A DNA stretch of 64,000 nt from a virus, in the IMG/VR virus record IMGVR_UViG_3300028840_006907, positions 288,001 through 352,000 of that record; one strand, 5' to 3'. How positions within the stretch are numbered: the stretch's first letter is position 1; each line of letters starts with the position of its first letter. Of the stretch, positions 2,671 through 62,900 are shown in pieces. A program made the position numbers and the translations under genes. The notes under the pieces were generated by a model that searched no databases, was not told the origin of the DNA, and saw only the letters and a list, made by a program, of their open reading frames with translations.

Positions 2671-3144
2671 ATGAAAATTGTAAAAGCAATGAAAAAAATT
2701 GCCCGGTTGAAAGGGGAAGTACGCGAATTAAAGAAACGCATGAGCCGTTGTTTAAATACCCTAGAAGATAATGAAGATTTTGTTGAATCCTATAAGGATT
2801 TAGAGAAAGAATTACTTCATAAAATTACGATGATTATAAATTTGAAAAGTATTATTATGAAAGCAAATATTGATAATAATATGTTTTCTGTTATTGTGAA
2901 TTTGGGTGAACTTAAGAGTTATATGGAATATTTAAAAGAACTTGAACCTAAATCGGGTTTTAATAGTTTAAATGATTATTCAGATAAAAATGCTGAATTT
3001 AAATCACAATTGACTATAAAAGAAAAGAATGATAAAATTTCTGAATGTCAAAAAGCTATTAATGATTTGACAGATCTATTGGACGATTTTAATGCTACAA
3101 CTAATGTAGAATTTACAGAAATAGATTTAAAATTATTTGAATAA
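2671..3144 (+). CDS. hypothetical coiled-coil protein
   Basis: RBS ggagg 8 nt upstream; charged helical-looking sequence; no enzymatic motif. Confidence 0.5.
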   Translation: MKIVKAMKKIARLKGEVRELKKRMSRCLNTLEDNEDFVESYKDLEKELLHKITMIINLKSIIMKANIDNNMFSVIVNLGELKSYMEYLKELEPKSGFNSLNDYSDKNAEFKSQLTIKEKNDKISECQKAINDLTDLLDDFNATTNVEFTEIDLKLFE

Positions 3145-3149
3145 ATAAA

Positions 3150-3340
3150 AAGTGTAGTTGTCCGATGAATAGGTTATAATTTAGTTCAGTTCCGATTGAG
3201 CTTTTTTATAATTTATAAAAAATACATGGTATAAAGATATTGATATTTTCTTAATAATCGTCTTAGGTTTTACAAGTTTTTAGTTTTCAGTTGAGTCGAA
3301 TATCATTGTTCTTTTTTAGTTTTAGTTGACAACTACACTT
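3150..3340. repeat. 13-bp perfect inverted repeat pair flanking a 165-bp AT-rich segment
   Basis: AAGTGTAGTTGTC at 3150-3162 is the exact reverse complement of GACAACTACACTT at 3328-3340; TTTAGTT-containing imperfect direct repeats lie inside. Confidence 0.7.
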
Positions 3341-3361
3341 CCTTTATTAGATAGGAATAAT

Positions 3362-3652
3362 ATGGGTAAACTTCATAAAGAACTTTTTAAAGGATTAAAA
3401 TGGGTCCTTATTGCTATACTTATTATAGCGTTTATGGTGGGAGCCTGGGTAGGGTTGGCATGGTCAATAGGTTGGTTTGTAAATAGATTTTTTGATTTAC
3501 AAAATTTCAGCCCTGAGAGTTACATTTCATTCGGATCTATTATGCTGGTCTTTAATCTAATATTACAAATAATAACTGTAATTATCACCGTATGGGCTCT
3601 TCTTGCCTGGGGAAAATCCCGAGGAATGAATAATTTAAAGGGGGTCAAGTGA
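3362..3652 (+). CDS. small integral membrane protein
   Basis: ORF track starts at TTG 3326, but ATG 3362 (MGKLHKEL) is more plausible; hydrophobic stretches WVLIAILIIAFMVGAWVGLAW and IMLVFNLILQIITVIITVWALLAW. Confidence 0.5.
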   Translation: MGKLHKELFKGLKWVLIAILIIAFMVGAWVGLAWSIGWFVNRFFDLQNFSPESYISFGSIMLVFNLILQIITVIITVWALLAWGKSRGMNNLKGVK

Positions 3653-4134
3653 ATCGTACAATAGAGATTGATGCTGAATTTTTTGAGCACCTTTTAAATT
3701 GTATGGCAAATCAGAAGTATATCGGATCCCAATTACCTGAAAAAGCTGCCGAGAAACAAAAGATTATTGATGAGGCATGGCGAAAAGGTATGGATATATT
3801 AAATCCTATCGTTAAAACGAAAGATAAAGCAGAGGATGCTTTAAAAAAATTCAATAAGAAACTTCATAAAGATCTCCCCCTTATTACAAAAAAGATAAAA
3901 GATGTAATGGATGACAATAAATATCCAAAGGATTATGTCACTGAATATGCTATGAAGTGGACTTCTGTAAGACAAGATTGTGAGATGTATTGTCTTATAG
4001 CAGAATCGGTAGATAAAGAAGAATTCGAAAAGTTATGTGAAGACAGAAGTTATACCCGGAATATGAGAGATTATATCATAGAGGTTTTAAAACATGTAGG
4101 GTTAGGAGATAATCTTGAACTGGGACATGAATAG
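3649..4134 (+). CDS. hypothetical protein
   Basis: 161-aa ORF; GTG start overlaps upstream stop (GTGA); no motif recognised. Confidence 0.5.
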   Translation: MNRTIEIDAEFFEHLLNCMANQKYIGSQLPEKAAEKQKIIDEAWRKGMDILNPIVKTKDKAEDALKKFNKKLHKDLPLITKKIKDVMDDNKYPKDYVTEYAMKWTSVRQDCEMYCLIAESVDKEEFEKLCEDRSYTRNMRDYIIEVLKHVGLGDNLELGHE

Positions 4135-4315
4135 GTTTGAAAGATGGTTTTTAAAACGGCTTTGTAGAAAGATAGTGACACAGGGTGATCATAAGAGGCG
4201 TATTATTGAACATTATAAAATATTAATGGAAGCTGCAAAAGAAGAATTTACAGAAGAAAATAAGTATGGTCTTGATAGTTTCATGCAAGAATGTTTTGAA
4301 AAAGCACTTAAATAG
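4127..4315 (+). CDS. hypothetical small protein
   Basis: ORF track 4115 (TTG); ATG at 4127 overlaps upstream stop by 8 nt. Confidence 0.4.
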   Translation: MNRFERWFLKRLCRKIVTQGDHKRRIIEHYKILMEAAKEEFTEENKYGLDSFMQECFEKALK

Positions 4316-4335
4316 TAAAGGAAGATAATTGAAAT

Positions 4336-7320
4336 ATGGCAGAGCAATTAAAAGTTGGATGGGTCGGATATGGGGGTAATAGTTGGATGGCTGAGGATCT
4401 TCGGCCAGTTATAGAAAAGCTAGGAATGACTTTATTCACGATTCATGAACATGATAACGCAGATATTAAATGGGAAAAGGATAACTGGTTCAATCATTTA
4501 AAAAAAGCTGATATAGTTATAGCTCCAGCTAATTATAAAAAACAACCTGCAAAGAGTGCAAATCGATTAATACAATCAATGTCAATGGGTAAACCTGTCA
4601 TATGTTCTCCTTTACCTGCATATTTAGATGTGGCTAAAAAACATCCTGGTTCATTTCTTCTAGCTGATGTCCCGGAAGAATGGGAGGAATGTTTAAAATT
4701 GCTTAGAGATAATCCTTCTTTTCGTAAACAGATGAGTGAGAAGGCTCTAGAAGCTGTTGAAGATTTTTCGATAAATGTCATAGGAAATAAGTGGCTAGAA
4801 TTATTAGAGAAAGATGTACCAATAAAAAAAGATACTGAATCGAATAAAGTTCTTATTACAGATATAATCATACCTACATATAAAAATCTTCGTGGCTTGA
4901 AGTTATGTATTGAGAGTATTCTGGAGTGTACGTTAGTGCCGTACAATATTATAATTGTAAATAATGGAACTGATGAGGAATTGCATAACTATTGTTCTCA
5001 ATTGGTAAATGTAACTTACATAAAAAAAGACAGACTTAATTTTGCCCAAGCCATGAATGTCGGGATTAAAGCAGGTGATTCTGATTTAGTCGTTCTATTA
5101 AATGATGATGTTATTGTCAGTAAAGGATGGCTTATGAATTTGAAATATGCCTGTACTGAAGATGTGGGTGCAGTAGGACCTTTAAGTAATTGTGATAAAT
5201 CCTGGCTCCATAATCATGATATCAATATTGGTGGAGTAGAATTACTGCCTGGTTCAAATACTTTTGAACAAATTGAGCCTATTATTTCTCAGATATATAA
5301 TTATGAATCTCCTTTTTTAGAAGAACCTGAACGAAAATGGGTTGCATTTTATGCTACTTTAATTCCTCGGTCAGTAATAGAAGAAGTAGGTTTTTTAGAT
5401 GAGTCCTTTACAAATTCGGGAGAGGATGTTGATTATTGTAACAGGATTATGAAGTTAGGGTATAAAATAAAACAGACCTATAAAAGTTTTGTATTTCATT
5501 TCGGAGCTGTAAGTAGGAAATTACTGGAGCAGGAAGATAAGGGCACTTATCAGAAAGCTGATGAGGAGACTCAAGAATATTTAAAGATCAAGTATTCAAA
5601 ACCAACAGTAATAATCTATTCCGGTGCCAGTTGGGAGAGATGGAGTTATAAGTCTCTTGAACAGGGGGGTATTGGTGGTAGTGAAGTTTGGCAGATAAAT
5701 GTTTGTCGTGAGTTAAATAAATTGGGTTATAGAGTAATCAGTTTTAATGATTCCCCGGAAAAGGAAATGTGGGAAGATGGGATTCAATATCTTCATTATG
5801 GAGAATTTTCGAAATGGTGTGATGGTAACTATGCCGATTACGCAATTATAAGTAGAACAACCGATCCTTTACATCATCCTTTAAGAGCTGGAAAAATATT
5901 TATAATGGTTCACGATGTCTGGTTACTTTCTGCTAGAGATCAATTATTCCTTGATAAAGTAGATAAATTTTGTGTACTTAGTAAATGGCATTGGGATTTT
6001 TTTAAAGGTCACCATGGAATCCAAGATGAATCAAAATTGGCGTTGACTTCTAATGGGATAGATTTTAATCGTTATGATAACAAAAATATTGAAAGACATC
6101 CTTATAAAATGTTTTACAGTTCTTCCCCGGATCGAGGTCTTGATACACTCCTTTACCTATTTCCCTTTATTAAGGAAAAAATTCCAGAACTTGAACTCCA
6201 TATTTATTATGGATTTAACAATTGGGAAAAGGCAGTGAAGATGAGAAAAAACCAGATTGAGATAGATAGAATGAATAAAATAAAAAAGGATATGGAACAA
6301 CCTGGGGTATTTTATCATGGCCGAGTTGGTCAGAAGGAGCTAGCTGAAGCGCAATTAGAATGTTCTCTTTGGGCCTATCCGACGGATTTTGAAGAAGTTT
6401 TTTGCATCACTGCTATTGAGGCTCAAAGAGCCAGAATCCCTGTATTAGCAACGAATTACGCTGCTTTACAGACAACAGTAGGTGACTCAGGAATTCTAAT
6501 AGGAAATGGCATGAAAGGAGAATCTTATACACGAGATTATCGATTAAAATTTGTAGATGAGTGTATAAAAGTTTTAACAGATAAAGAATATAGAGAACAC
6601 TGGATTGAGAAAGGTTTAAAAAATACGGAGAAATATTCTTGGGAACAAGTGGCTAAAAATTGGAAGAAATTGTTTGAAAAAAGTGATCAAAAAGTAGAAG
6701 CAAAAATTATAGATGAAAAAGAATACAAGAAAGATCGAGTGCTAGTTCATGAAATGAAAATAAGTTCTAATTATATGCCAGATCCTCACAGCCATTTAAA
6801 TAATGAGAGAGATCGTTTTCATTATTATAAAACACTTAATGCTTTCGTTTCATCAAATTCATGTAGTGCATTGGATGTGGGTTGTTTTGATGGGTGGATT
6901 GATTTTCTTCTTATAGAACAAGGATTTAAATTAACTGGAGTTGAGTTGATGGAACCTCTTGTTCAAGCTGCTCGAAAATATGCAGAAGTTAAACAACTTG
7001 ATTATACAATTTATCAGGGTTTTTTTGAAGAGATTGAGATAGACCAGAAATTTGATTTAGTGATATGTTTGGAGACTTTGGAACATATTGATTTAAAACT
7101 TGTCCCTGAGTATATACAAAAAATGAAAAGTCTTGCTACAAAGGGTCTTTTCATATCACTCCCGGATCAGAAACATGAAGATAATACCCAGCATTTATGG
7201 ACACCTACTGAAAATTTAATAAGAAAAATGTGGGGTAATAAAAAGAATTTTTCATTGGAATACCATACTTATCAGGATTCAAATTTACCCGCTAATTGGT
7301 TAATTTATTTCGAAGTGTAG
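4336..7320 (+). CDS. 994-aa multidomain glycosyltransferase / methyltransferase fusion
   Basis: Four segments. ~4336-4830: GT-B C-terminal-half-like. ~4858-5536: GT2 (IIIPTYKN, LLNDDVIVSKGW, GEDVDYCNR). ~5608-6676: GT4/GT1 (GGIGGSEVW, EVFCITAIEAQRARIPVLATN). ~6825-7320: class I SAM methyltransferase (ALDVGCFDGW, LVICLETLEHI). Confidence 0.85.
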   Translation: MAEQLKVGWVGYGGNSWMAEDLRPVIEKLGMTLFTIHEHDNADIKWEKDNWFNHLKKADIVIAPANYKKQPAKSANRLIQSMSMGKPVICSPLPAYLDVAKKHPGSFLLADVPEEWEECLKLLRDNPSFRKQMSEKALEAVEDFSINVIGNKWLELLEKDVPIKKDTESNKVLITDIIIPTYKNLRGLKLCIESILECTLVPYNIIIVNNGTDEELHNYCSQLVNVTYIKKDRLNFAQAMNVGIKAGDSDLVVLLNDDVIVSKGWLMNLKYACTEDVGAVGPLSNCDKSWLHNHDINIGGVELLPGSNTFEQIEPIISQIYNYESPFLEEPERKWVAFYATLIPRSVIEEVGFLDESFTNSGEDVDYCNRIMKLGYKIKQTYKSFVFHFGAVSRKLLEQEDKGTYQKADEETQEYLKIKYSKPTVIIYSGASWERWSYKSLEQGGIGGSEVWQINVCRELNKLGYRVISFNDSPEKEMWEDGIQYLHYGEFSKWCDGNYADYAIISRTTDPLHHPLRAGKIFIMVHDVWLLSARDQLFLDKVDKFCVLSKWHWDFFKGHHGIQDESKLALTSNGIDFNRYDNKNIERHPYKMFYSSSPDRGLDTLLYLFPFIKEKIPELELHIYYGFNNWEKAVKMRKNQIEIDRMNKIKKDMEQPGVFYHGRVGQKELAEAQLECSLWAYPTDFEEVFCITAIEAQRARIPVLATNYAALQTTVGDSGILIGNGMKGESYTRDYRLKFVDECIKVLTDKEYREHWIEKGLKNTEKYSWEQVAKNWKKLFEKSDQKVEAKIIDEKEYKKDRVLVHEMKISSNYMPDPHSHLNNERDRFHYYKTLNAFVSSNSCSALDVGCFDGWIDFLLIEQGFKLTGVELMEPLVQAARKYAEVKQLDYTIYQGFFEEIEIDQKFDLVICLETLEHIDLKLVPEYIQKMKSLATKGLFISLPDQKHEDNTQHLWTPTENLIRKMWGNKKNFSLEYHTYQDSNLPANWLIYFEV

Positions 7321-25482: not shown

Positions 25483-25567
25483 GTGGCCAGCCCCGCGTAG
25501 GCGGGGAAAAGGGATACGATAAGAAAAAATCTGCTCTGTGGAACAGCCCCACGAAAGTGGGGAATAA
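25483..25567 (-). CRISPR. two-repeat mini-array / solitary CRISPR-repeat-like hairpins (reverse orientation)
   Basis: Minus-strand copies CTTTTCCCCGCCTACGCGGGGCTGGCCAC (25483-25511) and TTATTCCCCACTTTCGTGGGGCTGTTCCA (25539-25567) match the repeat of the 51.4-kb array; 27-nt intervening sequence; sits between convergent genes. Confidence 0.55.
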
Positions 25568-50823: not shown

Positions 50824-51252
50824 ATGAGCAATATGAAAATTGCAATAGCTTCTTATATGCGTTATACAGTTGTTTTAGCCAACTTGAAAGAGCATTTCAA
50901 AAGAGAACTCGATCTAGCTGGCCTATTTGATAAAGACTCCGATTATAATGGAATGATAGGTAACGCTGTTATGGACCTGTGTAAAGTCTTCTCTGATCAG
51001 GGCCATAGCGGGTTCTCCGCGAACTGGGTTCTGAAATTGTTCGATACTCTTGGTCACTATAAAACGTTGACTCCTATTACAGATAATCCGAAAGAGTGGA
51101 TGAAGGTTACAGATGGCCTCGGTAGAGATGAACCGGTCTGGCAGAGTAATCGAAATCCTTCCCTTTTTTCTAATAATGGTGGAAAGAGTTATTATGATGT
51201 AGACGATAAGAAGCGTAAGAAGATCCGCTCTAAAAAGTTTAAAAAGAAATAA
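50824..51252 (+). CDS. hypothetical protein
   Basis: ATG 50824 follows upstream stop (track start 50788 overlaps); basic C-terminal tail. Confidence 0.5.
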   Translation: MSNMKIAIASYMRYTVVLANLKEHFKRELDLAGLFDKDSDYNGMIGNAVMDLCKVFSDQGHSGFSANWVLKLFDTLGHYKTLTPITDNPKEWMKVTDGLGRDEPVWQSNRNPSLFSNNGGKSYYDVDDKKRKKIRSKKFKKK

Positions 51253-51414
51253 TTTTTCTGAATAAATCAGGTTTTTTTCTTATTCTTTCGATAATTTCTC
51301 TTCTCTTTTTTCTCATAATTTATTATAATTATATATAGTATCTATAGCTCTTTGAAATTGGTAGAAATTTACTGAATCCGTAAGCCCTTGATCTTATGAT
51401 ATTTATGTTTTAGT
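51253..51414 (+). promoter_or_regulatory. AT-rich CRISPR leader-like region
   Basis: 162-bp gene-free AT-rich segment immediately 5' of the first repeat in the I-E repeat orientation; possible TTGATC(51388)-17 nt-TAGTAT(51411) promoter, weak. Confidence 0.45.
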
Positions 51415-52313
51415 ATATTCCCCGCGTATGCGGGGCTGGGCCGATAAATCTTAAAATGGGTAAGATAAAAACCTGAATATTCCCCGCCCATGCGGGGCTG
51501 ATGCGTAATATAAATAATTTTTGATCAATTATAGGACATATTCCCCGCCCCTGCGGGGATTCCCCGAAAATATTGATGTTTTTTTGTATATATCAAAAAT
51601 ATTCCCCGCCCCTGCGGGGTTGATGCGAATACCGAACAAGTGCAGGGCCTGCAGATTATATATTCCCCGCGTATGCGGGGCTGGCGCGTAGGAGGTAAAA
51701 ATGAAATCGAAACATATTCCCCGCGTATGCGGGGCTGGTTCTAGAATTGAATGAAGCGCTGAATTTTCCCCGCCCATGCGGGGCTGAACCGACCGGGAAA
51801 TCATATCTATCCATAAATCTTGCATATTCCCCGCGTATGCGGGGCTGAACCGATACTAGATTGGGACATGTGTTTACCCAGAACATATTCCCCGCCCATG
51901 CGGGGCTGAACCGATTTCAAAAAACACGACCAGATAAAGATGAATATTCCCCGCGTATGCGGGGCTGTGTCAGGGTGAGAGGCTCGTGACGAATAATTTT
52001 TCATATTCCCCGACTCTTCGGGGTTGCCCCTCAGGAAGCTATTGAATTGCAAAAAACTGTATTCCCCGTCTATGCGGGGCTGTCTCTCCACATGCAAATG
52101 TAAGTAGTAAATACTGAATATTCCCCGGCATTCCGGGGCTGATCCCGTCTGGTAAAAACATAAAATGGTTCATCATAAGTATTCCCCGCCCATGCGAGGT
52201 TGGGCCATCCAGTACTGCTACTGCTAGGACCGTATTCCCCGCCCATGCGGGGCTGATCCTACGACTGGGACAGAAGTATTCATTGGTTTCACCCCGGCCT
52301 TTCCGGGGTCTAA
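51415..52313 (+). CRISPR. type I-E-like CRISPR array, 16 repeats, no adjacent cas genes
   Basis: Best repeats ATATTCCCCGCGTATGCGGGGCTGAACCG at 51824 and 51885 (51763 differs slightly). The TTCCCC anchor recurs at 51418, 51480, 51541, 51602, 51663, 51717, 51766, 51827, 51888, 51947, 52006, 52062, 52121, 52182 and 52235, plus a degenerate copy near 52288. Unique intervening sequences. Confidence 0.85.
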
Positions 52314-52316
52314 AAT

Positions 52317-52355
52317 AAGGATCTGAGATTTTTTTCTTAGATCCTTATATTTTTA
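52317..52355 (+). terminator. rho-independent terminator immediately after the array
   Basis: AAGGATCTGAG (52317-52327) pairs with CTTAGATCCTT (52336-52346) with one G-U; 8-nt loop; T-rich tail. Confidence 0.65.
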
Positions 52356-52409: not shown

Positions 52410-53315
52410 ATGGCAATTGCGTTTATGAGAGGAAGCACCACTAATCAGAATGATTTGACCATAACGGTACGTGATACATCCAATAATTTGATCGACCCGT
52501 ATTCGTTGGAGTATGCTGTCTTCGATTACACTAGTGGCACTGAGGTCCTCATCGGATCCCCTGTTAATACTCCGCTCAAGTTGTCAACAGGAGAATATTG
52601 GGCGGAGGTTGTAATAGCAGCCGATGCCAATATAGGTCTCTGGCGCATCCGTTGGACAATTCAAGAAACAGCAGTCAGTCCTGTTTATCAATCGGTTCAG
52701 GAATTTCAAGTAGTAGGTTCCAGTGTTGTGACGAGTGTAACCGGAGATGCAAATTTTGATGCATTGGTCCATTCTTTACGAGTGATACTCCGAGACAACA
52801 ATCCGGACCGCAACTACAGATTTCGTCCCCCAGCTTCCGAGAAATTTATCCAAGGTCAGACCCAAGTCTTTGGATTCATTTGGGAAGATGAAGAGCTTGT
52901 AGAGTATATATACATGGCTATTGACGACTTCAATTCACGCCCCCCGACTACAGGTATAGATGTGGCCAATCTTTGGGGAACTGAGAGACGGTGGAGAACT
53001 ACAATTATTTTAAGAGCAGCAGCTTTTGCATGTTTCGCTATAACAATGAATTGGATCGCTGACGAATTTTCTTATTCAATTTCTGGAGTATCTCTTGACA
53101 TTGAGAAATCTTCGAAGTATCAATCTATGAAAGAGAATTATATCAATGAATATGACAAGCTTGTCGAGGCCAATAAGAGATCCATAAAAATTATAAAAGG
53201 TCTTAGGCAATATCGGTACGGGGTGGGCATCACGAGCGCCCTGGGACCCATGAACAGACCTGGAGTTCAAAGTAGAAGAAACCTTATAAGTCCAAGTTAT
53301 GGCCCTTATTTCTAA
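52410..53315 (+). CDS. hypothetical protein (possible virion protein)
   Basis: 301-aa ORF; visibly less AT-rich than its surroundings; no motif recognised. Confidence 0.5.
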   Translation: MAIAFMRGSTTNQNDLTITVRDTSNNLIDPYSLEYAVFDYTSGTEVLIGSPVNTPLKLSTGEYWAEVVIAADANIGLWRIRWTIQETAVSPVYQSVQEFQVVGSSVVTSVTGDANFDALVHSLRVILRDNNPDRNYRFRPPASEKFIQGQTQVFGFIWEDEELVEYIYMAIDDFNSRPPTTGIDVANLWGTERRWRTTIILRAAAFACFAITMNWIADEFSYSISGVSLDIEKSSKYQSMKENYINEYDKLVEANKRSIKIIKGLRQYRYGVGITSALGPMNRPGVQSRRNLISPSYGPYF

Positions 53316-53408: not shown

Positions 53409-55859
53409 TTATATTTTATTATTTTTTCTAAGGAGAGCTATCTGACGTTTAATCCATCGAGGAGTTTCTTCAAGAGTTTCAGCCATTTGATTTCTTGTCA
53501 TCTTTCCACGATTATCTATTATGAATTGGAGCTTTTCTTCAGTCTTTCTATCTTTGGTACAACCAATAGGGTTTTTTGTAGATAATGTACCTTTTTTTTG
53601 TAAGAATTTTATTTGAGATTTAACCCATCGCTCTGTTTCATTGAGAGCTTTAGATAATTCTTTTTTAGTTTTATTTTTATAATTAGTGATTATATACTGC
53701 GTTTTTTCAGGGGTTCTTCTACATTTTGTTGAGAATTTAGAAATCTCTTTTAAATAGGTAAATTTCTCAGTGGGTTGTTTAATATTTATATCTTCAATAC
53801 ATTTTGAATTATATATTTCTTTTTCTCTTTTAGGATAAGGTTTAGTAACATAATTTTTTAATTTGTTAATTTTTTTCTTATCTCTTTTATTTTCACCTAT
53901 TAATAAGACATATTTATGTTTTCTTTCAGTAATAAATTTTTGAGCTTCAGATAATATATTTTTATTCCAATTATTCCATTGAACTTTAATTCCTTCTGGT
54001 ATGGTACTCATATTTTTAAAACCATTTTCTTTAAACCATTCCTTTTGAGAAATAATCCCTTGATTTTTACACCATTTTTTAAATGCTGATGTACGTTTTA
54101 GAGATTGAGCTGAAAAAGTCCTATTATTTTTAATGGAAGGATGTTTATATAAGTATGAACTTCCAAAGTTATTTCCTAGATAATCAAATCCACAAGCTTG
54201 GTAAATAGTCCCTATTTCAAGAGCTTTAGGATCAGCATAACCTATGAAAGCTCTTTTAGAAGTGTTATTAGCCATCCAATTACAAGCAAACCTTATAAGA
54301 CGGCTACCCAGGTTTTTCGGGGTCCATGAGGCAGTGGCACCTCTTTGAATTAAAGCTTCATATTTGGGAGTATCTTTACCTAGAATTTTGGAATATGCTG
54401 TGGGTTCATTTATAAATAATACTCCTGCGAGAATATTATTGTATCTGGCTGTGAAGCACCATTTTGGTATTACTCCAATTGTTCCTAACCATTCATATTT
54501 TTTTATAAATTGGACCATTTCATTATTAAATTTTTCTTCAGATAATGTAAAAGAAGTAGCTTTTAAAGAAGAGTGATTGAAATCGATATTTTTTTTATCT
54601 TCATCAATCCATTGAAGTTTCTTTTTATATTGGTGGCATATAAAAGTGGTCTTGTTTTTACTGTTAATTTTATTTTTTATTAAATCAATGATAATACCTT
54701 TTCGGATAGCTTCTTTTACATCATCAGACCAAAATCTAATCAAATTGGGTATATTTTTATTTTGGATTTCATCATTCTTAATATTTTCTTTTATTTTTAA
54801 TGCCCTTGGAGACGTATCATTTTCTCTTATTTCTTTACCATGCCAATAATTACCATCATATTGTACCCATAAGTTATAGCGAGGCATATAGAAATCAATT
54901 ACATGTTTAATAATTGGGTGCATAACTTGATGTTCTACAAAAGGATCAAATACAATAAGATAATTAAAAAAGTTATTTTCTTCATCTGAGGATGAGAAGG
55001 AATTATTTAGTTTAACTGTTTTATATGTTTTTTCTTTTATTTCAACATTCTGTTGGGGATTTTCAACGCCATATCTTTCAATATTAGTTTCAGTGATTTT
55101 TTTCTTAATCTCTGGAGATTGGAATACATTGTCAACCCCGTATCTTGATTGTACTGTTACTTTAACTTTTCTTTTTACTTCTTTAGATTGAGAGGGGTAT
55201 TCTACTCCTCGTTTTTCAATATTAGATTGACGGGATTTTTCTTTCATTGAGTTTAGTTGAGTAGAATATTCTACGCCATAACGTTTTTTAATAGTTTCGT
55301 TATTATGTTTAACTATATCTTCATTTATTTTATCTCGATTCCTTCTTAATCCTAGTTTAATAGCTCTTTCTCGGATGGCTTTCCAGGTCCTGTTTTCAAA
55401 GTAGAGCATAATAAATTCCATAGAATTCTTTTCATATACTTCTTTTAAAAGATCATCTTCTTTGGGTGACCAGAAGTCTTCCCTAGCAGGAGCGCTTTTA
55501 CCACCATCAATCATTTCTTGTTTAATTATTTCAGGATTTCTTTGAAGGTTTAATTTTTGAGCATTACTTCGGATGCTTTGCCATGATCGATTCTTGAATT
55601 TAGAAAGGATAAATTCTTTTGAATTATTTTCATATATATTTTTAAGAATATTTATCTCTTCGGTTGTCCAGGAATCTTTTCTTGGTCCTCTTTTTTTACG
55701 GTCTTCATTTATAAGGTCAGGATTACGGTGAAGATTTAGCTTACGTGCTTTTCTACAGATGGTTGTCCAAGATTTATTTAATTTGGAGATAATAAATTCT
55801 TTTGAATTATTTTTATATATTTCTTTTAATAAATTTTCTTCTTCTATTTTCCAACGCAT
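53409..55859 (-). CDS. free-standing homing-endonuclease-like mosaic protein (Myb/SANT x3, HNH-associated repeats, PD-(D/E)xK-like core, Mom/GNAT-like domain, C-terminal HTH repeats)
   Basis: ATG 55859 with RBS aagagg (track start 55916 less likely). Three W-x2-EE-x2-L...Y...W...I repeats. Four (R/K)(Y/R)GVExxxQ repeats. VIDFYMPRYNLWVQYDGNYWHG. NLGSRLIRF...FIGYADPKALEIGTIYQACGFDYLG. Confidence 0.65.
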   Translation of the reverse strand: MRWKIEEENLLKEIYKNNSKEFIISKLNKSWTTICRKARKLNLHRNPDLINEDRKKRGPRKDSWTTEEINILKNIYENNSKEFILSKFKNRSWQSIRSNAQKLNLQRNPEIIKQEMIDGGKSAPAREDFWSPKEDDLLKEVYEKNSMEFIMLYFENRTWKAIRERAIKLGLRRNRDKINEDIVKHNNETIKKRYGVEYSTQLNSMKEKSRQSNIEKRGVEYPSQSKEVKRKVKVTVQSRYGVDNVFQSPEIKKKITETNIERYGVENPQQNVEIKEKTYKTVKLNNSFSSSDEENNFFNYLIVFDPFVEHQVMHPIIKHVIDFYMPRYNLWVQYDGNYWHGKEIRENDTSPRALKIKENIKNDEIQNKNIPNLIRFWSDDVKEAIRKGIIIDLIKNKINSKNKTTFICHQYKKKLQWIDEDKKNIDFNHSSLKATSFTLSEEKFNNEMVQFIKKYEWLGTIGVIPKWCFTARYNNILAGVLFINEPTAYSKILGKDTPKYEALIQRGATASWTPKNLGSRLIRFACNWMANNTSKRAFIGYADPKALEIGTIYQACGFDYLGNNFGSSYLYKHPSIKNNRTFSAQSLKRTSAFKKWCKNQGIISQKEWFKENGFKNMSTIPEGIKVQWNNWNKNILSEAQKFITERKHKYVLLIGENKRDKKKINKLKNYVTKPYPKREKEIYNSKCIEDINIKQPTEKFTYLKEISKFSTKCRRTPEKTQYIITNYKNKTKKELSKALNETERWVKSQIKFLQKKGTLSTKNPIGCTKDRKTEEKLQFIIDNRGKMTRNQMAETLEETPRWIKRQIALLRKNNKI

Positions 55860-55962
55860 ATGAGTACCTCTTTTTAGTATATTACTTATTATAACAGGTA
55901 TTAGAGTTATTGTCAATATTTCATTTAATAAATATGGAATTCATTAATTTATAGGGAAAAAG

Positions 55963-59978: not shown

Positions 59979-62900
59979 ATGGCTCAAGTAGAAAGAAAAT
60001 GGATCCAGGACCAAGCAATTTCCAATGAAAAAGTAGATCCCACTGATATTTATACCATTACAGGTTTAAGAGTTGATGAAACCAATGCCATTGGGAGAGT
60101 AGGAATAGGTTTATCTAGCCCTTTGGATGCTCTTCATATTCAACGAACTGATTCTTCTTCTGGAATGATGCTGGATCTTAGTGATGGTACAAATGGTAAA
60201 CTTTATAAGATATATTCAGGAGCTAATGGTTTACTGAATTTTACTGATGCTACAGATGGGGGCATATTCACCTATGGTGAATCAGGTTCGATAGGTCGAG
60301 TTGGTATCAATACCGCATCTATCCAAGATCACCTTCATGTAAGTTCCCCTTTAACAGATGCTGCGTTAAGACTTGATTTAGATGATGGACTCAATGGTCG
60401 AGCTTATCGTCTTGTCTCAGATACAGATGGAGCTTTTAGGATAATTGATGTTGATGCGGGTAATGTAAATAGACTTCAGATTGCTAATACAGGAACTTTA
60501 ACTGTCTCAGGTGATGCAACTTTTGATAGTAATTTTCAAATTAATGGTACTGTTACAGTTATTAATACTGAAATTGTCATTGCAGATCAATTAGAAATAA
60601 ATCAAACTGACAATCAGGCAGCATTGATAGTAAGTCAAGATACAGGTGGTGCTACAGCCACTGTAATGAGAATTGAAAATGCTGGCACAGGCCATGCTTT
60701 AACCGTAGATTCTGGTAATGTAGGTATTGGTACTTTAACTCCGGCTGCTCCTCTTCATGTTCAAGGTGATATAATTACTGCCAATGGGTATAATATCGGA
60801 GACACCACTCATAGAATTGGTACTCTTTGGATGGCTTCTACTGTAGATTATTTGACTGACCTTAATTTTAGTTCAGGTGGAACAAATGTTACTTTTGCAA
60901 CCGGTGGAAATGTCGGGATAGGTTCTGGTACTCCTACCCAGGCCCTGGATGTGGTTGGAACTATAGAAAATACAGGTGATATCATAACAACTGGTTCTTA
61001 TCCTTCCGGTTTAATAAGAGGAGCTTATTTAACGATAACTACTGGAAATTCGACTTTCCAAGGAAGAGTGGGAATTGGTGTTACAAGTCCGTCTTATCCT
61101 CTTCATGTTGGTGGAGACATTTATTCCAATACAGGTAATATTGTAGCCACTGCTGGAACTGTGACAGGTGGATCTGGTTTAATAGCTACTACAGGTGGTG
61201 TTATAGCCTCTGCTGGAAATATAACAGCGACCTTGGGTGATCTCATCGCTTCTGCGGGTTCTGTAACTGCTAATACAAATGTAACTGCTACGAATGGAAA
61301 TATAGTTGCTTCTAATGGAAATATTTCTGCTACGAATGGTACAGTAACAGGAGGCACCGGTTTAATAGCTACCACAGGGGGTGTGACCGCTACGAATGGA
61401 AATATAGTTGCTTCTAATGGAAATATTTCTGCTACGAATGGTACAGTAACAGGAGGCACCGGTTTAATAGCTACCACAGGGGGTGTGACCGCTTTAGCTG
61501 GTAATATCTCTGCTTCGGCTGGTTCTGTAACTGCTAATACTAATATAACAGCCACGAATGGTAATATTGTTGCTTCTAATGGAAATATTTCTGCTACAAA
61601 TGGTACGGTAACAGGAGGCACCGGTTTAATAGCGACTACAGGTGGTGTAACCGCTACGGCTGGAAATATCACTGCTTCAAATGGTAGTTTTGTCGCTCCA
61701 AATGGAATTGTAAGTGTAGGTTTTGGCGTTATAGCAGCAGGGGGTGATATATTTGCCCAAACGGGTAAAGTAGGAATTTCAACCAGTTCTATTGCAGGAG
61801 GTTATGTATTACATGTTCAAGGAAACGCTTATTGTTCAGGTCAAGTAGATACAAATACTTTGGATGTAGGTAGTGGCAGTTTTACTGTAAGTGCAATTGG
61901 TGCAACAAATATCGGACCAGGCTGGTTAACTTTCGGTCAACATATGTCTGGTGGAGGACAGATTGGATCTGCTTCTACCGTAAATATTGTTTCAACCAGT
62001 GGTGCAACTATGTCAGGAGGTTCAGGCGCTGTCTCAATTACTACTAATAACAGTGGTACGCCAAGTGCGATTAATGTGACCTCTGGAAATAACACCGGAT
62101 CAGGAGTTGGTGGAGCACTCAATCTGAATGCAGGTGATTCGGGAGGAGCTGGTACAGGTGGTGCAGTAACTATTACTGGAGGAACGGCTTCAGGTGGTGG
62201 ATCTACAGGAGGAGACATTTTGCTGCTTCCTGGAAGTGCTGTCTCAAATGGGCGCGTTGAGGTAGGCACAGGTGCCTCTTCGAAAAATTTATGGGTTTCA
62301 GGTAGTGTAACTATAGAAGGAGCTAATTCTGCTTTTGCTCTTTCGATTAATAATACGAATTATGTAGGAGCTTATTGTGCAATAGCAGGAGCATCAACGG
62401 TAGCTGGCTGGTTTGAAAATAGTGGTTCAGATTCAACATCTATGTTTGTGCAACAATTAAATACTGGTAAAGGGCTTTTCGCTACTGGATTAGGATTAAA
62501 TTCTTTTGCAGGATTTTTCCAAAGTACGGGCTATACAACTCTTAGGTCAGAAGTGAGTGGTACTGGAGGTGGTGATTATGCTGTACATGCAATATGTACA
62601 AATGCTGGATCGAGTGCCACTTCAGCAGCAGTTTTTGCTCAAAATTGGGGAGGTGGAAAAGCTATTCAGGCAACCGCAGGAACTGGAACTACTATTCAAG
62701 GGTCAAACACTAATGGTACTGCTATTTATGGGTCTCAAGCAGGAACCTCTGGTAGAGCAGGACGTTTTAGGTGTAATGCTGGATCTTATGCATACAATGC
62801 TGTTGAGGTAGAAGTGACTTCAGGTACAGGAGCTTCAAAAGGGATCTTAGTTAATTATACCGGTTCTGGTAATGCTATAGAAGTAAACGGTGGTAGTGGC

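Follow-up and report, generated by a model that had tools for sequence, protein, structure and literature searches.

A G-like jumbo phage carries an array of CRISPR-derived type I-E repeat mimics in a variable cargo hotspot between a Tad3-family gene and a gene for a head-tail connector-like protein. The 64-kb stretch of its genome analyzed here (the window) contains 18 repeat copies, of which 15 form a secure array, one is a doubtful terminal copy, and two make up a separate mini-locus. Across these copies, conservation is seen in the sequence of the lower stem, in the pairing of the upper stem, and in the bases that immediately flank the expected Cas6e cut site (GGGG^CTG), whereas drift is tolerated in the loop, in the rest of the repeat, and in both the length and the sequence of the spacers. 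The best reading of the locus, to which we give an about even chance of being correct, is an array of RNA anti-CRISPR units directed at Cas6e and akin to Racr and Cracr.

Repeat units and array layout

The array spans positions 51415–52260 on the plus strand and comprises 15 type I-E-like units (R1–R15), each scoring 34–44 bits against a covariance model trained on the copies themselves. A search of the whole window with this model returns exactly 18 copies and no extras, and the hairpin motif occurs 21 times in the window against 1.27 expected. The array units follow the formula ATATT-CCCCGC-NNNN-GCGGGG-CTGNNNNN, and 17 of the 18 copies share a layout of 5, 6, 4, 6, and 8 nt. From R1 to R15, start-to-start spacing is 62, 61, 61, 61, 54, 49, 61, 61, 59, 59, 56, 59, 61, and 53 nt, with 7 of the 14 intervals at 60–62 nt. 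Fourteen unique spacers of 20–33 nt separate R1–R15, and a fifteenth, of 26 nt, precedes R16; five of the 15 are shortened to 20–27 nt and three to 30 nt. Toward the leader-distal end, the repeats are more degenerate and the spacers shorter. Loops in the array copies read GTAT, CCAT, CCCT, CTCT, CTAT, CATT, and CCTTT, with the GTAT and CCAT types alternating along the array.

Several units depart from the common stem. The top stem pair changes from C-G to A-U in R11 (52003–52031; CCCCGA/TCGGGG), becomes a U·G wobble in R12 (52059–52087; CCCCGT/GCGGGG), and is flipped to G-C in R13 (52118–52146; CCCCGG/CCGGGG). R14 (52179–52207) has a C·A at pair 3 (GCGAGG); it is the sole copy with a broken pair, and the standard hairpin fold is not obtained for it. 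The doubtful terminal copy, R16 (52287–52316, plus strand), reads TTTCA-CCCCGG-CCTTT-CCGGGG-TCTAAAAT with a 5-nt loop and scores just 15.2 bits (E = 0.02). Its 3′ arm and all downstream sequence are conserved in a relative, L336, that is itself without an array.

The mini-locus sits on the minus strand between convergent genes. Its two copies, M1 (25539–25567; 33.8 bits) and M2 (25483–25511; 34 bits), are separated by a 27-nt spacer (25512–25538) and have TTTC and CTAC loops. Pair 5 of M1 is A-U (CCCCAC/GTGGGG), the stem type that dominates in the sister phage L341, and a terminator-like hairpin at 25546–25531 overlaps the tail of M1. An earlier note on this DNA had counted 18 copies; the count holds, but the copies do not all belong to one array, given the doubtful status of R16 and the separate minus-strand pair.

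Stem pairing and conservation

Over all 18 copies, 99.1% of stem cells are paired, and four cells across two pairs are changed on both sides. The stem changes comprise four compensated, one wobble, and one broken. The earlier note had reported double, pairing-preserving substitutions at 52006, 52121, 52292, and 25547 (the last on the minus strand), a wobble at 52062, and a broken pair at 52182. All are present at these positions, and the reading is borne out: the A-U and G-C changes are compensated, one copy has a G·U wobble, and one has a break. A covariation test by column shuffling likewise comes out above chance, since the score of the 18 copies is reached by none of 500 shuffles; the top stem pair has a permutation p of ~5e-4. 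With the 15 secure copies only, covariation is limited to one pair (C-G in 12 copies, otherwise A-U, G-C, and U-G), and the score is reached by 1 of 500 shuffles. Assembly error, raised beforehand as a possible objection, is an unlikely source of the variants because the array sequence is identical in the JGI and Logan assemblies.

A minimum-energy RNA fold of the whole array pairs different repeats with one another and is uninformative on local hairpins, so single-unit folds were used in its place. These give the expected hairpin in 17 of the 18 copies, at −9.7 to −13.6 kcal/mol.

Conservation is distributed very unevenly along the unit. The lower four C-G pairs diverge by 0.8% (one change in 128 sites). 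Divergence in the upper stem reaches 11%, with pairing retained and covariation confined to the two loop-proximal pairs. Elsewhere, it is 10% in ATATT, 17% in CTG, 28% in the loop, and 44% in the last 5 nt. The earlier proposal that selection acts on the hairpin rather than on the repeat sequence is thus sustained for the hairpin and not for the contrast, as the lower four pairs, ATATT, and CTG are conserved in sequence. The unit, 29 nt long, has the anatomy of a Cas6e substrate (5 nt, then a G+C stem of 6 bp closed by a tetraloop, then a tail of 8 nt) and is under selection as a hairpin, with strong independent support from L341. Cas6e reads both RNA sequence and shape (PMC3902920), and invariant lower pairs combined with covarying upper pairs are the pattern expected of a protein that reads sequence plus shape. 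This pattern suggests that the hairpins may be recognized or cleaved by Cas6e.

Relationship to type I-E CRISPR repeats

The units show both the Cas6e hairpin geometry of type I-E repeats and similarity to cas-adjacent repeats, with 25–26 of 28–29 nt matching real repeats. R7–R9 match 25 of 29 positions of a repeat (GTATTCCCCGCACACGCGGGGCTGAACCG) from locus L144, which adjoins a complete cas3-cse1-cse2-cas6e-cas7-cas5 operon on a contig of 33% G+C and exemplifies the CTGAACCG-type system, while R15 matches 26 of 28 positions of a Propionibacteriaceae repeat. The unit geometry equals that of E. coli crRNA, with an 8-nt handle, a 32-nt spacer, and a 21-nt hairpin (PMC4288178). Like the type I-E arrays of E. 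coli K-12 and T. thermophilus, the locus has a 28–29-nt repeat with an xTxTT start, a 6-bp CCCCGC/GCGGGG or CCCCAC/GTGGGG stem, a tetraloop, and a NTGNNCCG tail, along with a 61-nt period (in half of the units here), an AT-rich leader, and one orientation throughout.

The differences from such arrays are equally clear. No two of the 15 array repeats are identical, the tail corresponding to the crRNA 5′ handle is highly variable, spacers range from 20 to 33 nt, and loop types alternate; near-identical repeats and uniform 32–33-nt spacers are lacking, and there is no adjacent cas operon, with no cas gene lying within at least 20 kb. A control set of 68 real I-E arrays from metagenomes has almost entirely identical repeats at a spacing of 60–62 nt, which agrees with the earlier remark that such heterogeneity is unusual within one array. 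Mean mismatch to the best consensus is 4.9 here, compared with mostly <0.5 in the controls. Stem changes in the control arrays comprise 3 compensated, 15 wobble, and 31 broken, versus 4, 1, and 1 here (Fisher p = 0.0014). Instead of an ordinary array with odd repeats, the evidence favors a cas-less, phage-borne, CRISPR-derived array in an anti-defense hotspot.

A larger array in a sister phage

The closely related phage L341 carries ~65 units with 62 spacers at the same Tad3–connector hotspot. Its stem is CCCCAC/GTGGGG, its period ~54 nt, and its median spacer 25 nt. Of 414 stem cells, 98.6% are paired; pair 5 is A-U in 51 cases and G-C in 16, with two G·U intermediates. There are 13 U·G wobbles versus 2 C·A mismatches (binomial p = 0.004), and this excess points to selection on the plus-strand RNA. 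In a third repeat type of L341, too, the four lower C-G pairs are invariant and the upper pairs covary; 63 of its 64 cells are paired. One sub-block still consists visibly of tandem duplicates.

Genomic context

The Tad3-family gene (50824–51252, plus strand) encodes a predicted type I Thoeris inhibitor of 142 amino acids in both JGI and Logan gene calls, and matches Pfam PF25185 with E = 5e-33 and 113.8 bits against a cutoff of 27; all of its 284 homologues contain PF25185. Its end lies 162 nt upstream of repeat 1, and a Tad3 neighbor is also present in L341. The intervening AT-rich, leader-like region (51253–51414, plus strand) contains a promoter-like site at 51310–51339, with a sigma-70-like TTCTCA-18-TATAGT. 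This region can be partly aligned with that upstream of the first repeat in L341, and GTTTTAGT precedes repeat 1 in both phages. Downstream, an intrinsic-terminator-like hairpin with a T-run (52315–52348, plus strand) has a 14-bp stem followed by ATTTTTAATA, would close the array transcript, and is conserved in L336. From these signals, the array is predicted to read on the plus strand from the AT-rich leader to the intrinsic terminator.

The connector-like gene (52410–53315, plus strand) forms the right border of the variable hotspot and is conserved in jumbo phages. Its tblastn matches include a "head-tail connector protein" of Tunturiibacter phage Tunturi_5 and gp165 of Bacillus phage G. 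It is found at 112 IMG/VR loci and is 86% identical to its L341 orthologue. In five syntenic relatives, the hotspot is empty or holds other cargo, and in 80 IMG/VR loci reached through the connector gene, neither an array nor a single unit lies nearby. The array-bearing and syntenic relatives were reached through Tad3 homologues.

Other annotations of the array sequence were tried and rejected. Rfam gives no family at gathering thresholds anywhere in the window, and its array matches at E ≤ 10 are at chance level. A terminator or REP-like identity was rejected because T-runs are lacking: the repeat hairpins precede CTG and G+C-rich bases, and a T-run occurs only at the separate 52315–52348 hairpin. 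A coding reading was rejected as well, since the 98-amino-acid minus-strand gene that JGI calls across the array matches just the translations of other CRISPR arrays.

Proposed function and origin

In the preferred reading, each RNA unit would fold into a hairpin with a 6-bp stem and tetraloop that is recognized by the host Cas6e endoribonuclease, which would cut at the 3′ base of the hairpin and then remain attached. One transcript could thereby capture many Cas6e molecules, 15–16 here and ~65 in the sister phage. The products would be crRNA-like, with non-cognate 5′ handles and mostly short spacers, and could build defective or reprogrammed Cascade complexes. The device would then act as an RNA anti-CRISPR in many copies, either sequestering like Racr or supplying repressing guides like Cracr. 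Its origin is probably a captured I-E array, given the 61-nt period still seen in half of the units. It would since have evolved through recombination, duplication of units, and divergence, and canonical spacer acquisition does not explain the present form.

A more specific proposal is offered tentatively, at somewhat less than even probability. In a lineage of G-like jumbo phages, a captured I-E array may have become a high-copy device whose RNA transcript bears 16 to >65 Cas6e hairpins and which grows by tandem duplication and divergence without Cas1–Cas2 acquisition; this would represent an undescribed, arrayed RNA anti-CRISPR. It could serve as a sponge that captures Cascade subunits stoichiometrically, among them the single-turnover Cas6e, or it could supply a large set of short (~25-nt), non-cleaving guides that would reprogram host Cascade.

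Alternative explanations

A rather unlikely alternative, although the strongest, is that the phage has hijacked a guide array, in which case crRNAs or crRNA-like guides loaded in host Cascade would attack competing phages or, as short guides that do not cleave, silence host genes. The leader, uniform orientation, and terminator are compatible with this, as are the spacers, which are unique and unstructured; a search for structured spacers found a summed folding energy no different from shuffles (p = 0.39). Some units could be working guides, because about half keep a tail fitting the I-E pattern NTGNNCC(G) (R1, R7–R9, R13, and R15 have I-E-like tails) and 8 of the 15 spacers are of the canonical 32–33 nt. 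Published precedents also favor guides: the use of host Cas proteins has been proposed for huge phages that carry host-like repeats but no cas genes (PMC7162821), viral mini-arrays target related viruses (PMC11656645), and regulatory CreR/CreA guides are as long as the median spacer of L341, 25 nt (bioRxiv 10.1101/2024.10.29.618823). Spacer 5 resembles a ribosome-binding site plus start codon.

Against guides stands the 5′ handle region, which is the most variable part of the unit, yet E. coli Cascade requires all 8 nt (PMC4288178). Spacer lengths of 13–34 nt are unlike the output of I-E adaptation, and the L341 block grows via tandem duplication. Searches with blastn-short found no protospacers in the window, in 80 loci of related jumbo phages, or in ~1.7 Mb of further loci; neither did a comparison with INPHARED at E ≤ 10 or, for spacers S4, S7, and S8 only, exact IMG/VR scans in which every sixth base was masked. 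The spacers also have no match in the AT-rich I-E locus L144. The absence of targets is weak evidence, as the databases searched are small or truncated. A scan of species genomes for the host by exact repeat gave just a high-G+C Propionibacteriaceae array and scattered single matches, and among the arrays compared, none has a spacer against the window.

That the array serves a CRISPR-Cas system encoded by the phage itself, in another part of its 388-kb genome, is improbable. Many huge phages do carry CRISPR-Cas systems without adaptation genes and with compact arrays (PMC7162821), and the sequence inspected covers ~84 kb (~22%) of the 388,651-bp contig Ga0180437_10000019 (JGI 3300017963), on which the window lies reversed at about 88,443–152,442. 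Within it, there is no Cas match among the 75 ORFs of the window or the called genes of 10-kb extensions beyond both window ends, and tblastn with an I-E Cas set gives no matches. Phage cas genes normally adjoin their arrays, and a phage-encoded system would leave the repeat heterogeneity unexplained.

We attach a similarly low probability to a decaying relic, in which a host-captured array erodes without function and the paired changes stem from template-switch (quasi-palindrome) mutation or from imported repeats that were already compensated. Degenerate leader-distal repeats with shortening spacers are what such erosion would leave; both stem types occur in natural I-E repeats, compensated changes are occasionally seen in terminal repeats of real arrays such as L180, and the array in the window has one covarying pair only. 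Neutral decay, however, cannot leave the lower stem at 0.8% divergence while the tail reaches 44%. Template switching gives perfect Watson–Crick arms, leaving unexplained the plus-strand, RNA-specific excess of U·G over C·A in L341, a phage that keeps its ~65 units, 98% paired and still amplifying. Broken stems, moreover, predominate among the variants of real arrays.

It is very improbable that the units are unrelated to CRISPR and are instead clustered terminators, REP-like elements, or a repeat within a coding sequence. In favor, the hairpins are G+C-rich although the genome is AT-rich, three of the units are scored as terminator-like on the minus strand, and a gene has been called across them. 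Against this, no T-run lies 3′ of the plus-strand hairpins, the minus-strand tails read AATAT, the conserved flanks, 29-nt unit, and 61-nt period match I-E repeats, the called protein matches only translated CRISPR arrays, Rfam offers no other family, and the match to real I-E repeat sequences effectively refutes it.

Comparison with known RNA anti-CRISPRs and phage arrays

The favored reading, a Cas6e-directed RNA anti-CRISPR array, has its closest counterparts in Racr and Cracr. Like Racr, including RacrIE1/2 (Camara-Wilpert et al. 2023, PMC10651486), the locus mimics a CRISPR repeat, is carried by a mobile element without being part of a CRISPR-Cas locus, and adjoins an anti-defense gene, here Tad3; racr genes cluster with anti-defense genes (PMC10651486). 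Racr activity requires the Cas6 stem-loop and dispenses with the 5′ handle, as mutagenesis of RacrIF1 indicates (PMC10651486), and the retention of the stem-loop with a freely varying handle in this array is consistent with Racr-like Cas6 binding and CRISPR inhibition, and only that. Racr are defined as solitary units, in contrast to the 15–16 tandem units and two-unit mini-locus here and the ~65 units of the sister phage, and SRUFinder would drop the present locus as an array.

Cracr arrays (Liu et al., bioRxiv 10.1101/2024.10.29.618823) are likewise phage-borne, with degenerate repeats and spacers below canonical length (21–24 nt in type I-E), are multiplexed in one transcript, and are associated with other anti-defense genes. 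The present locus resembles them in being carried by a virus, in the degeneracy of its repeat-like units, and in the shortening of its spacer-like segments; Cracr are defined by a spacer that partially matches a host cas or creT promoter with a PAM, and the likeness drawn here is one of array form alone. Known Cracr arrays have 2–3 spacers, compared with 15 here and 62 in L341, and half of the spacers here are full length. The array thus fits neither the Racr definition nor the known Cracr arrays. It also resembles viral mini-arrays and the arrays that huge phages carry without cas genes (Al-Shayeb et al. 2020, PMC7162821; PMC11656645) in its jumbo phage carrier, host-type repeats, compactness, and lack of nearby adaptation or interference genes. 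In those arrays, the repeats are reported to match those of the host and the spacers often target related phages, whereas the repeats here are mutually divergent and the searches found no targets.

RNA-based anti-CRISPRs have so far been known as single repeat units or arrays of 2–3 units. If the favored reading is true, an array of 16–65 units that preserves only the features of Cas6e recognition would mean that phages can scale this strategy up, and that CRISPR arrays, once exapted, can evolve via duplication and divergence instead of acquisition. Taken together, the two loci are a naturally occurring mutational scan of the I-E hairpin, with invariant lower pairs, covarying upper pairs, tolerated U·G, and a free loop and tail, and every feature is testable with any Cas6e. 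Such loci also escape or mislead CRISPR finders and gene callers, as the 98-amino-acid JGI "gene" illustrates.

A cas-less array of type I-E repeat mimics

The locus is a phage-borne, cas-less array of type I-E repeat mimics in an anti-defence hotspot. Fifteen direct repeats occupy positions 51415-52260 on the + strand, with an extra hairpin at 52287-52316. The array repeat unit is ATATT-CCCCGC-NNNN-GCGGGG-CTGNNNNN: 29 nt made up of 5 leading nt, a 6-bp stem closed by a 4-nt loop, and a tail of 8 nt. Start-to-start distances are 62, 61, 61, 61, 54, 49, 61, 61, 59, 59, 56, 59, 61 and 53 nt, and the 15 spacers, counting the segment that precedes the 52287 hairpin, measure 33, 32, 32, 32, 25, 20, 32, 32, 30, 30, 27, 30, 32, 24 and 26 nt. 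A minus-strand pair at 25539-25567 and 25483-25511, spaced by 56 nt and situated between convergent genes, brings the number of copies to 18. Chance would place 1.27 instances of the motif in the window, where 21 are present. A covariance model constructed from these copies recovers the 18 and nothing more, scoring far higher in the + orientation than in reverse. The terminal copy (52287-52316) is doubtful because it scores only 15 bits and its 3' arm, along with the terminator behind it, is conserved in an array-less relative, L336.

The repeat unit belongs to the type I-E CRISPR repeat family. Real arrays carry GTATTCCCCGCATGTGCGGGGCTGATCC in Propionibacteriaceae, with a 61-nt period, and GTATTCCCCGCACATGCGGGGGTGATCC in Lactobacillus, and among the matches listed, TTCCCCGC....GCGGGGCTGAACC(G) is carried by more than 120 metagenome stretches. 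On one of these stretches, a contig of 33% G+C (L144), a GTATTCCCCGCACACGCGGGGCTGAACCG array is placed after a cas3-cse1-cse2-cas6e-cas7-cas5 operon. [quoted passage not shown]

Canonical I-E arrays combine identical repeats with uniform spacers and lie next to cas genes; the window locus departs from all three features and is not an ordinary I-E array. Among 68 real I-E arrays used as controls (about 2,400 repeats, from metagenome matches), nearly all repeats are identical and spacing is 60-62 nt, whereas no two window repeats are the same and spacing is regular in only half, confirming that such variability is unusual inside one array. GTAT and CCAT loops alternate along the first ten repeats, an arrangement not expected from polarised acquisition that starts from a single leader-proximal repeat. 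PADLOC models detect no Cas families among 75 ORFs, tblastn with the L144 Cas set finds no homologues, and precomputed Pfam calls contain no cas genes across 42-64 kb of the window and 10 kb beyond each end. The spacers are unique, share the G+C content of the phage and show no excess of structure over shuffles. No targets were found in the window, related jumbo-phage loci, about 1.7 Mb of other loci or INPHARED, nor in IMG/VR for spacers S4, S7 and S8, a search limited to those sets.

The tail of the third repeat (51559-51566) reads ATTCCCCG, a duplicate of the repeat start that looks like a slippage or recombination scar. In spacer 5 (51701-51754 together with repeat 6), AGGAGG is followed after 6 nt by an ATG that opens a 17-codon ORF, MKSKHIPRVCGAGSRIE, through repeat 6. 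It may be a genuine micro-ORF or a guide directed at the translation start of a gene, or have arisen by chance. A 98-aa gene annotated by JGI across the array (~51529-51825, minus strand) is similar only to translations of other CRISPR arrays and is rejected as a gene-calling artefact.

Genomic setting

The window comes from a metagenome contig of 388,651 bp. The carrier is a G-like jumbo phage, because the head-tail connector-like gene downstream of the array (52410-53315) is common to Tunturiibacter phage Tunturi_5 and Bacillus phage G and is also found on 112 IMG/VR contigs as long as 450 kb. Directly upstream lies a Tad3-family Thoeris inhibitor gene (50824-51252; E=5e-33). Ahead of repeat 1 comes an AT-rich, leader-like stretch that includes a promoter-like site, and behind the last unit stands a strong terminator-like hairpin. 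In 80 IMG/VR relatives, the vicinity of the connector gene holds neither an array nor a single unit. In closer, syntenic relatives, found via Tad3 homologues, the Tad3-connector interval is a cargo hotspot: it is empty in L338, L340 and L345, holds other genes in L336 and L342, and holds repeat units in L341.

Selection on the hairpin

The earlier note had read compensatory stem substitutions as selection on the hairpin rather than on repeat sequence. All the stem variants it listed are confirmed. An independent Logan assembly contains the identical array, which speaks against assembly error, and in a covariation test on all 18 copies none of 500 column shuffles matches the observed score. Across these copies 99.1% of stem cells are paired, both-side changes occupy four cells in two pairs, shifting the partner by 1-3 columns destroys pairing, and the loop-closing pair gives a permutation p of about 5e-4. 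In the 15 secure copies alone, covariation is confined to one pair (C-G in 12, with A-U, G-C and U·G) and the score is reached by 1 of 500 shuffles. Window stem variants comprise 4 compensated, 1 wobble and 1 broken, against 3, 15 and 31 in the control arrays (Fisher p = 0.0014; array proper only, 0.04).

Divergence from consensus is 0.8% in the four lower C-G pairs, 11% in the two upper pairs, where pairing is maintained, 10% in the ATATT flank, 17% in the CTG flank, 28% in the loop and 44% in the last five bases. In the lower stem it is thus the sequence that is conserved, in the upper stem the structure, and the wording "rather than on repeat sequence" goes too far. Cas6e recognises sequence and shape via a beta-hairpin in the major groove at the stem bottom, a mode that the invariant lower and covarying upper pairs fit (PMC3902920).

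A larger sister array

The closest relative found, L341 (Logan SRR24942399_22; connector protein 86% identical, Tad3 72%), carries about 65 I-E-like units in two blocks flanking its Tad3 gene (20-1094 and 2887-5670), a lower bound because the contig begins inside the first block. Their consensus is GTATT-CCCCAC-ACAG-GTGGGG-TTGNNCCG, with a stem that is mostly CCCCAC/GTGGGG, a median period of 54 nt and 62 spacers of 13-34 nt (median 25). The region upstream of repeat 1 ends in GTTTTAGT in both arrays.

When 52 L341 units are pooled with 17 window units, 408/414 stem cells (98.6%) are paired, pair 5 is A-U in 51, G-C in 16 and a G·U intermediate in 2, and none of 2,000 shuffles reaches the observed values. 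Where only one side changed, 13 cells are U·G, each through a C-to-U change in the 5' arm, and 2 are C·A (binomial p = 0.004); by distinct type the ratio is only 5 to 2, since duplication may have spread the CCUCAC variant. Stable U·G pairing is possible in RNA only, and here in the + strand transcript alone, so that selection acts on the + strand RNA hairpin and not on a DNA cruciform. Template-switch mutation, which yields perfect arms, cannot produce this asymmetry.

A third L341 repeat type, TTCCCCCGGTCTTGACTGGGGGCTGCTCC (5268-5670), combines an 8-bp stem with a CTTG loop. Its four lower C-G pairs are invariant, 63/64 cells are paired, and upper pairs covary (A-U/G·U/G-C and C-G/U-A/U·G). 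Its 53-54-nt units remain 60-89% alike with spacers included, which shows that the arrays grow by tandem duplication and indicates that it was recent in this case. This type may mimic a different I-E repeat variant.

Possible function

Selection at the RNA level preserves the hairpin and the nucleotides flanking the expected cleavage site, whereas the rest of the tail, the loop and the spacers drift. We favour, with moderate confidence, a multi-copy Cas6e-directed anti-CRISPR RNA, whose units host Cas6e would bind and cut before remaining on the product. Two published modes of action match. Racrs sequester Cas6 and Cas7 in aberrant complexes, require the stem-loop, can dispense with the 5' handle and are found clustered with anti-defence genes (PMC10651486). 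Phage-borne Cracr arrays, with degenerate repeats and 21-24-nt spacers, re-programme Cascade so that cas or toxin promoters are repressed (bioRxiv 10.1101/2024.10.29.618823). Divergent-tail units are unlikely to guide any single host Cascade effectively, because target recognition by E. coli Cascade needs all 8 nt of the 5' handle (PMC4288178). Some of the units, namely those whose tails are I-E-like and whose spacers measure 32-33 nt, may nevertheless be guides. A hijacked guide array is a possible but clearly less probable reading. That the array serves a cas operon located elsewhere in the phage genome is improbable, given that none lies in the window or the 10 kb beyond each end, and a non-functional relic is no more probable. 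A non-CRISPR element is very improbable, as the unit matches I-E repeats in both sequence and geometry.

The locus would act like a Racr or Cracr yet fits neither current definition: Racrs are solitary, whereas the window array has 15-16 tandem units and L341 about 65, and known Cracr arrays have 2-3 spacers against 15 here. Heterogeneous hairpin-preserving repeat mimics already exist, since IMG/VR mini-arrays L273, L219 and L328 mix CCCCAC/GTGGGG and CCCCGC/GCGGGG units at 49-nt spacing. What is new is the number of units (16 and about 65), together with evidence of duplication growth and the internal covariation.

Additional observations

These three mini-arrays and L240, L310 and L322 (also IMG/VR) have 2-3 I-E-like units at 49-74-nt spacing, with both stem types and wobble stems mixed, and look like published I-E Cracr/Racr elements. 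In L144 (195-7605; peat metagenome Ga0187863_10002705), the array directly follows the cas operon with no cas1/cas2 in between, spacing is irregular (53-138 nt) and a CCCCGT/GCGGGG wobble variant occurs. L111 and L106 have similar irregular arrays, and all three may be further non-canonical I-E loci.

In an 835-aa protein (53409-55916, minus strand), DUF7487 and homing/HNH-endonuclease-like regions occur together with a Mom-like DNA-modification domain and HTH motifs at the C-terminus; this protein is kept beside the hotspot in L341 and L342. Two opposed blocks at positions 1-39800, about 40 kb in all, hold genes for glycosyltransferases, methyltransferases, sulfotransferases, UDP-glucose dehydrogenase, epimerases and nucleotidyl-transferases, a sugar-modification module unusually large for a phage; one ORF there has a radical-SAM (pVip-like) match. 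A downstream 1,228-aa gene contains nested tandem repeats of 21, 81 and 102 nt with identities of up to 98% (61277-61686) and probably encodes a repetitive tail-fibre-like protein.

Within its repeat block, L341 carries an 80-aa helix-turn-helix ORF (3024-3263; HTH_17, E=1e-5, just below Pfam's cutoff) reminiscent of Aca regulators of anti-CRISPR operons. Half-repeats, CCCGTGGGGTGATCC, stand directly behind full repeats near L341 positions 160 and 925.
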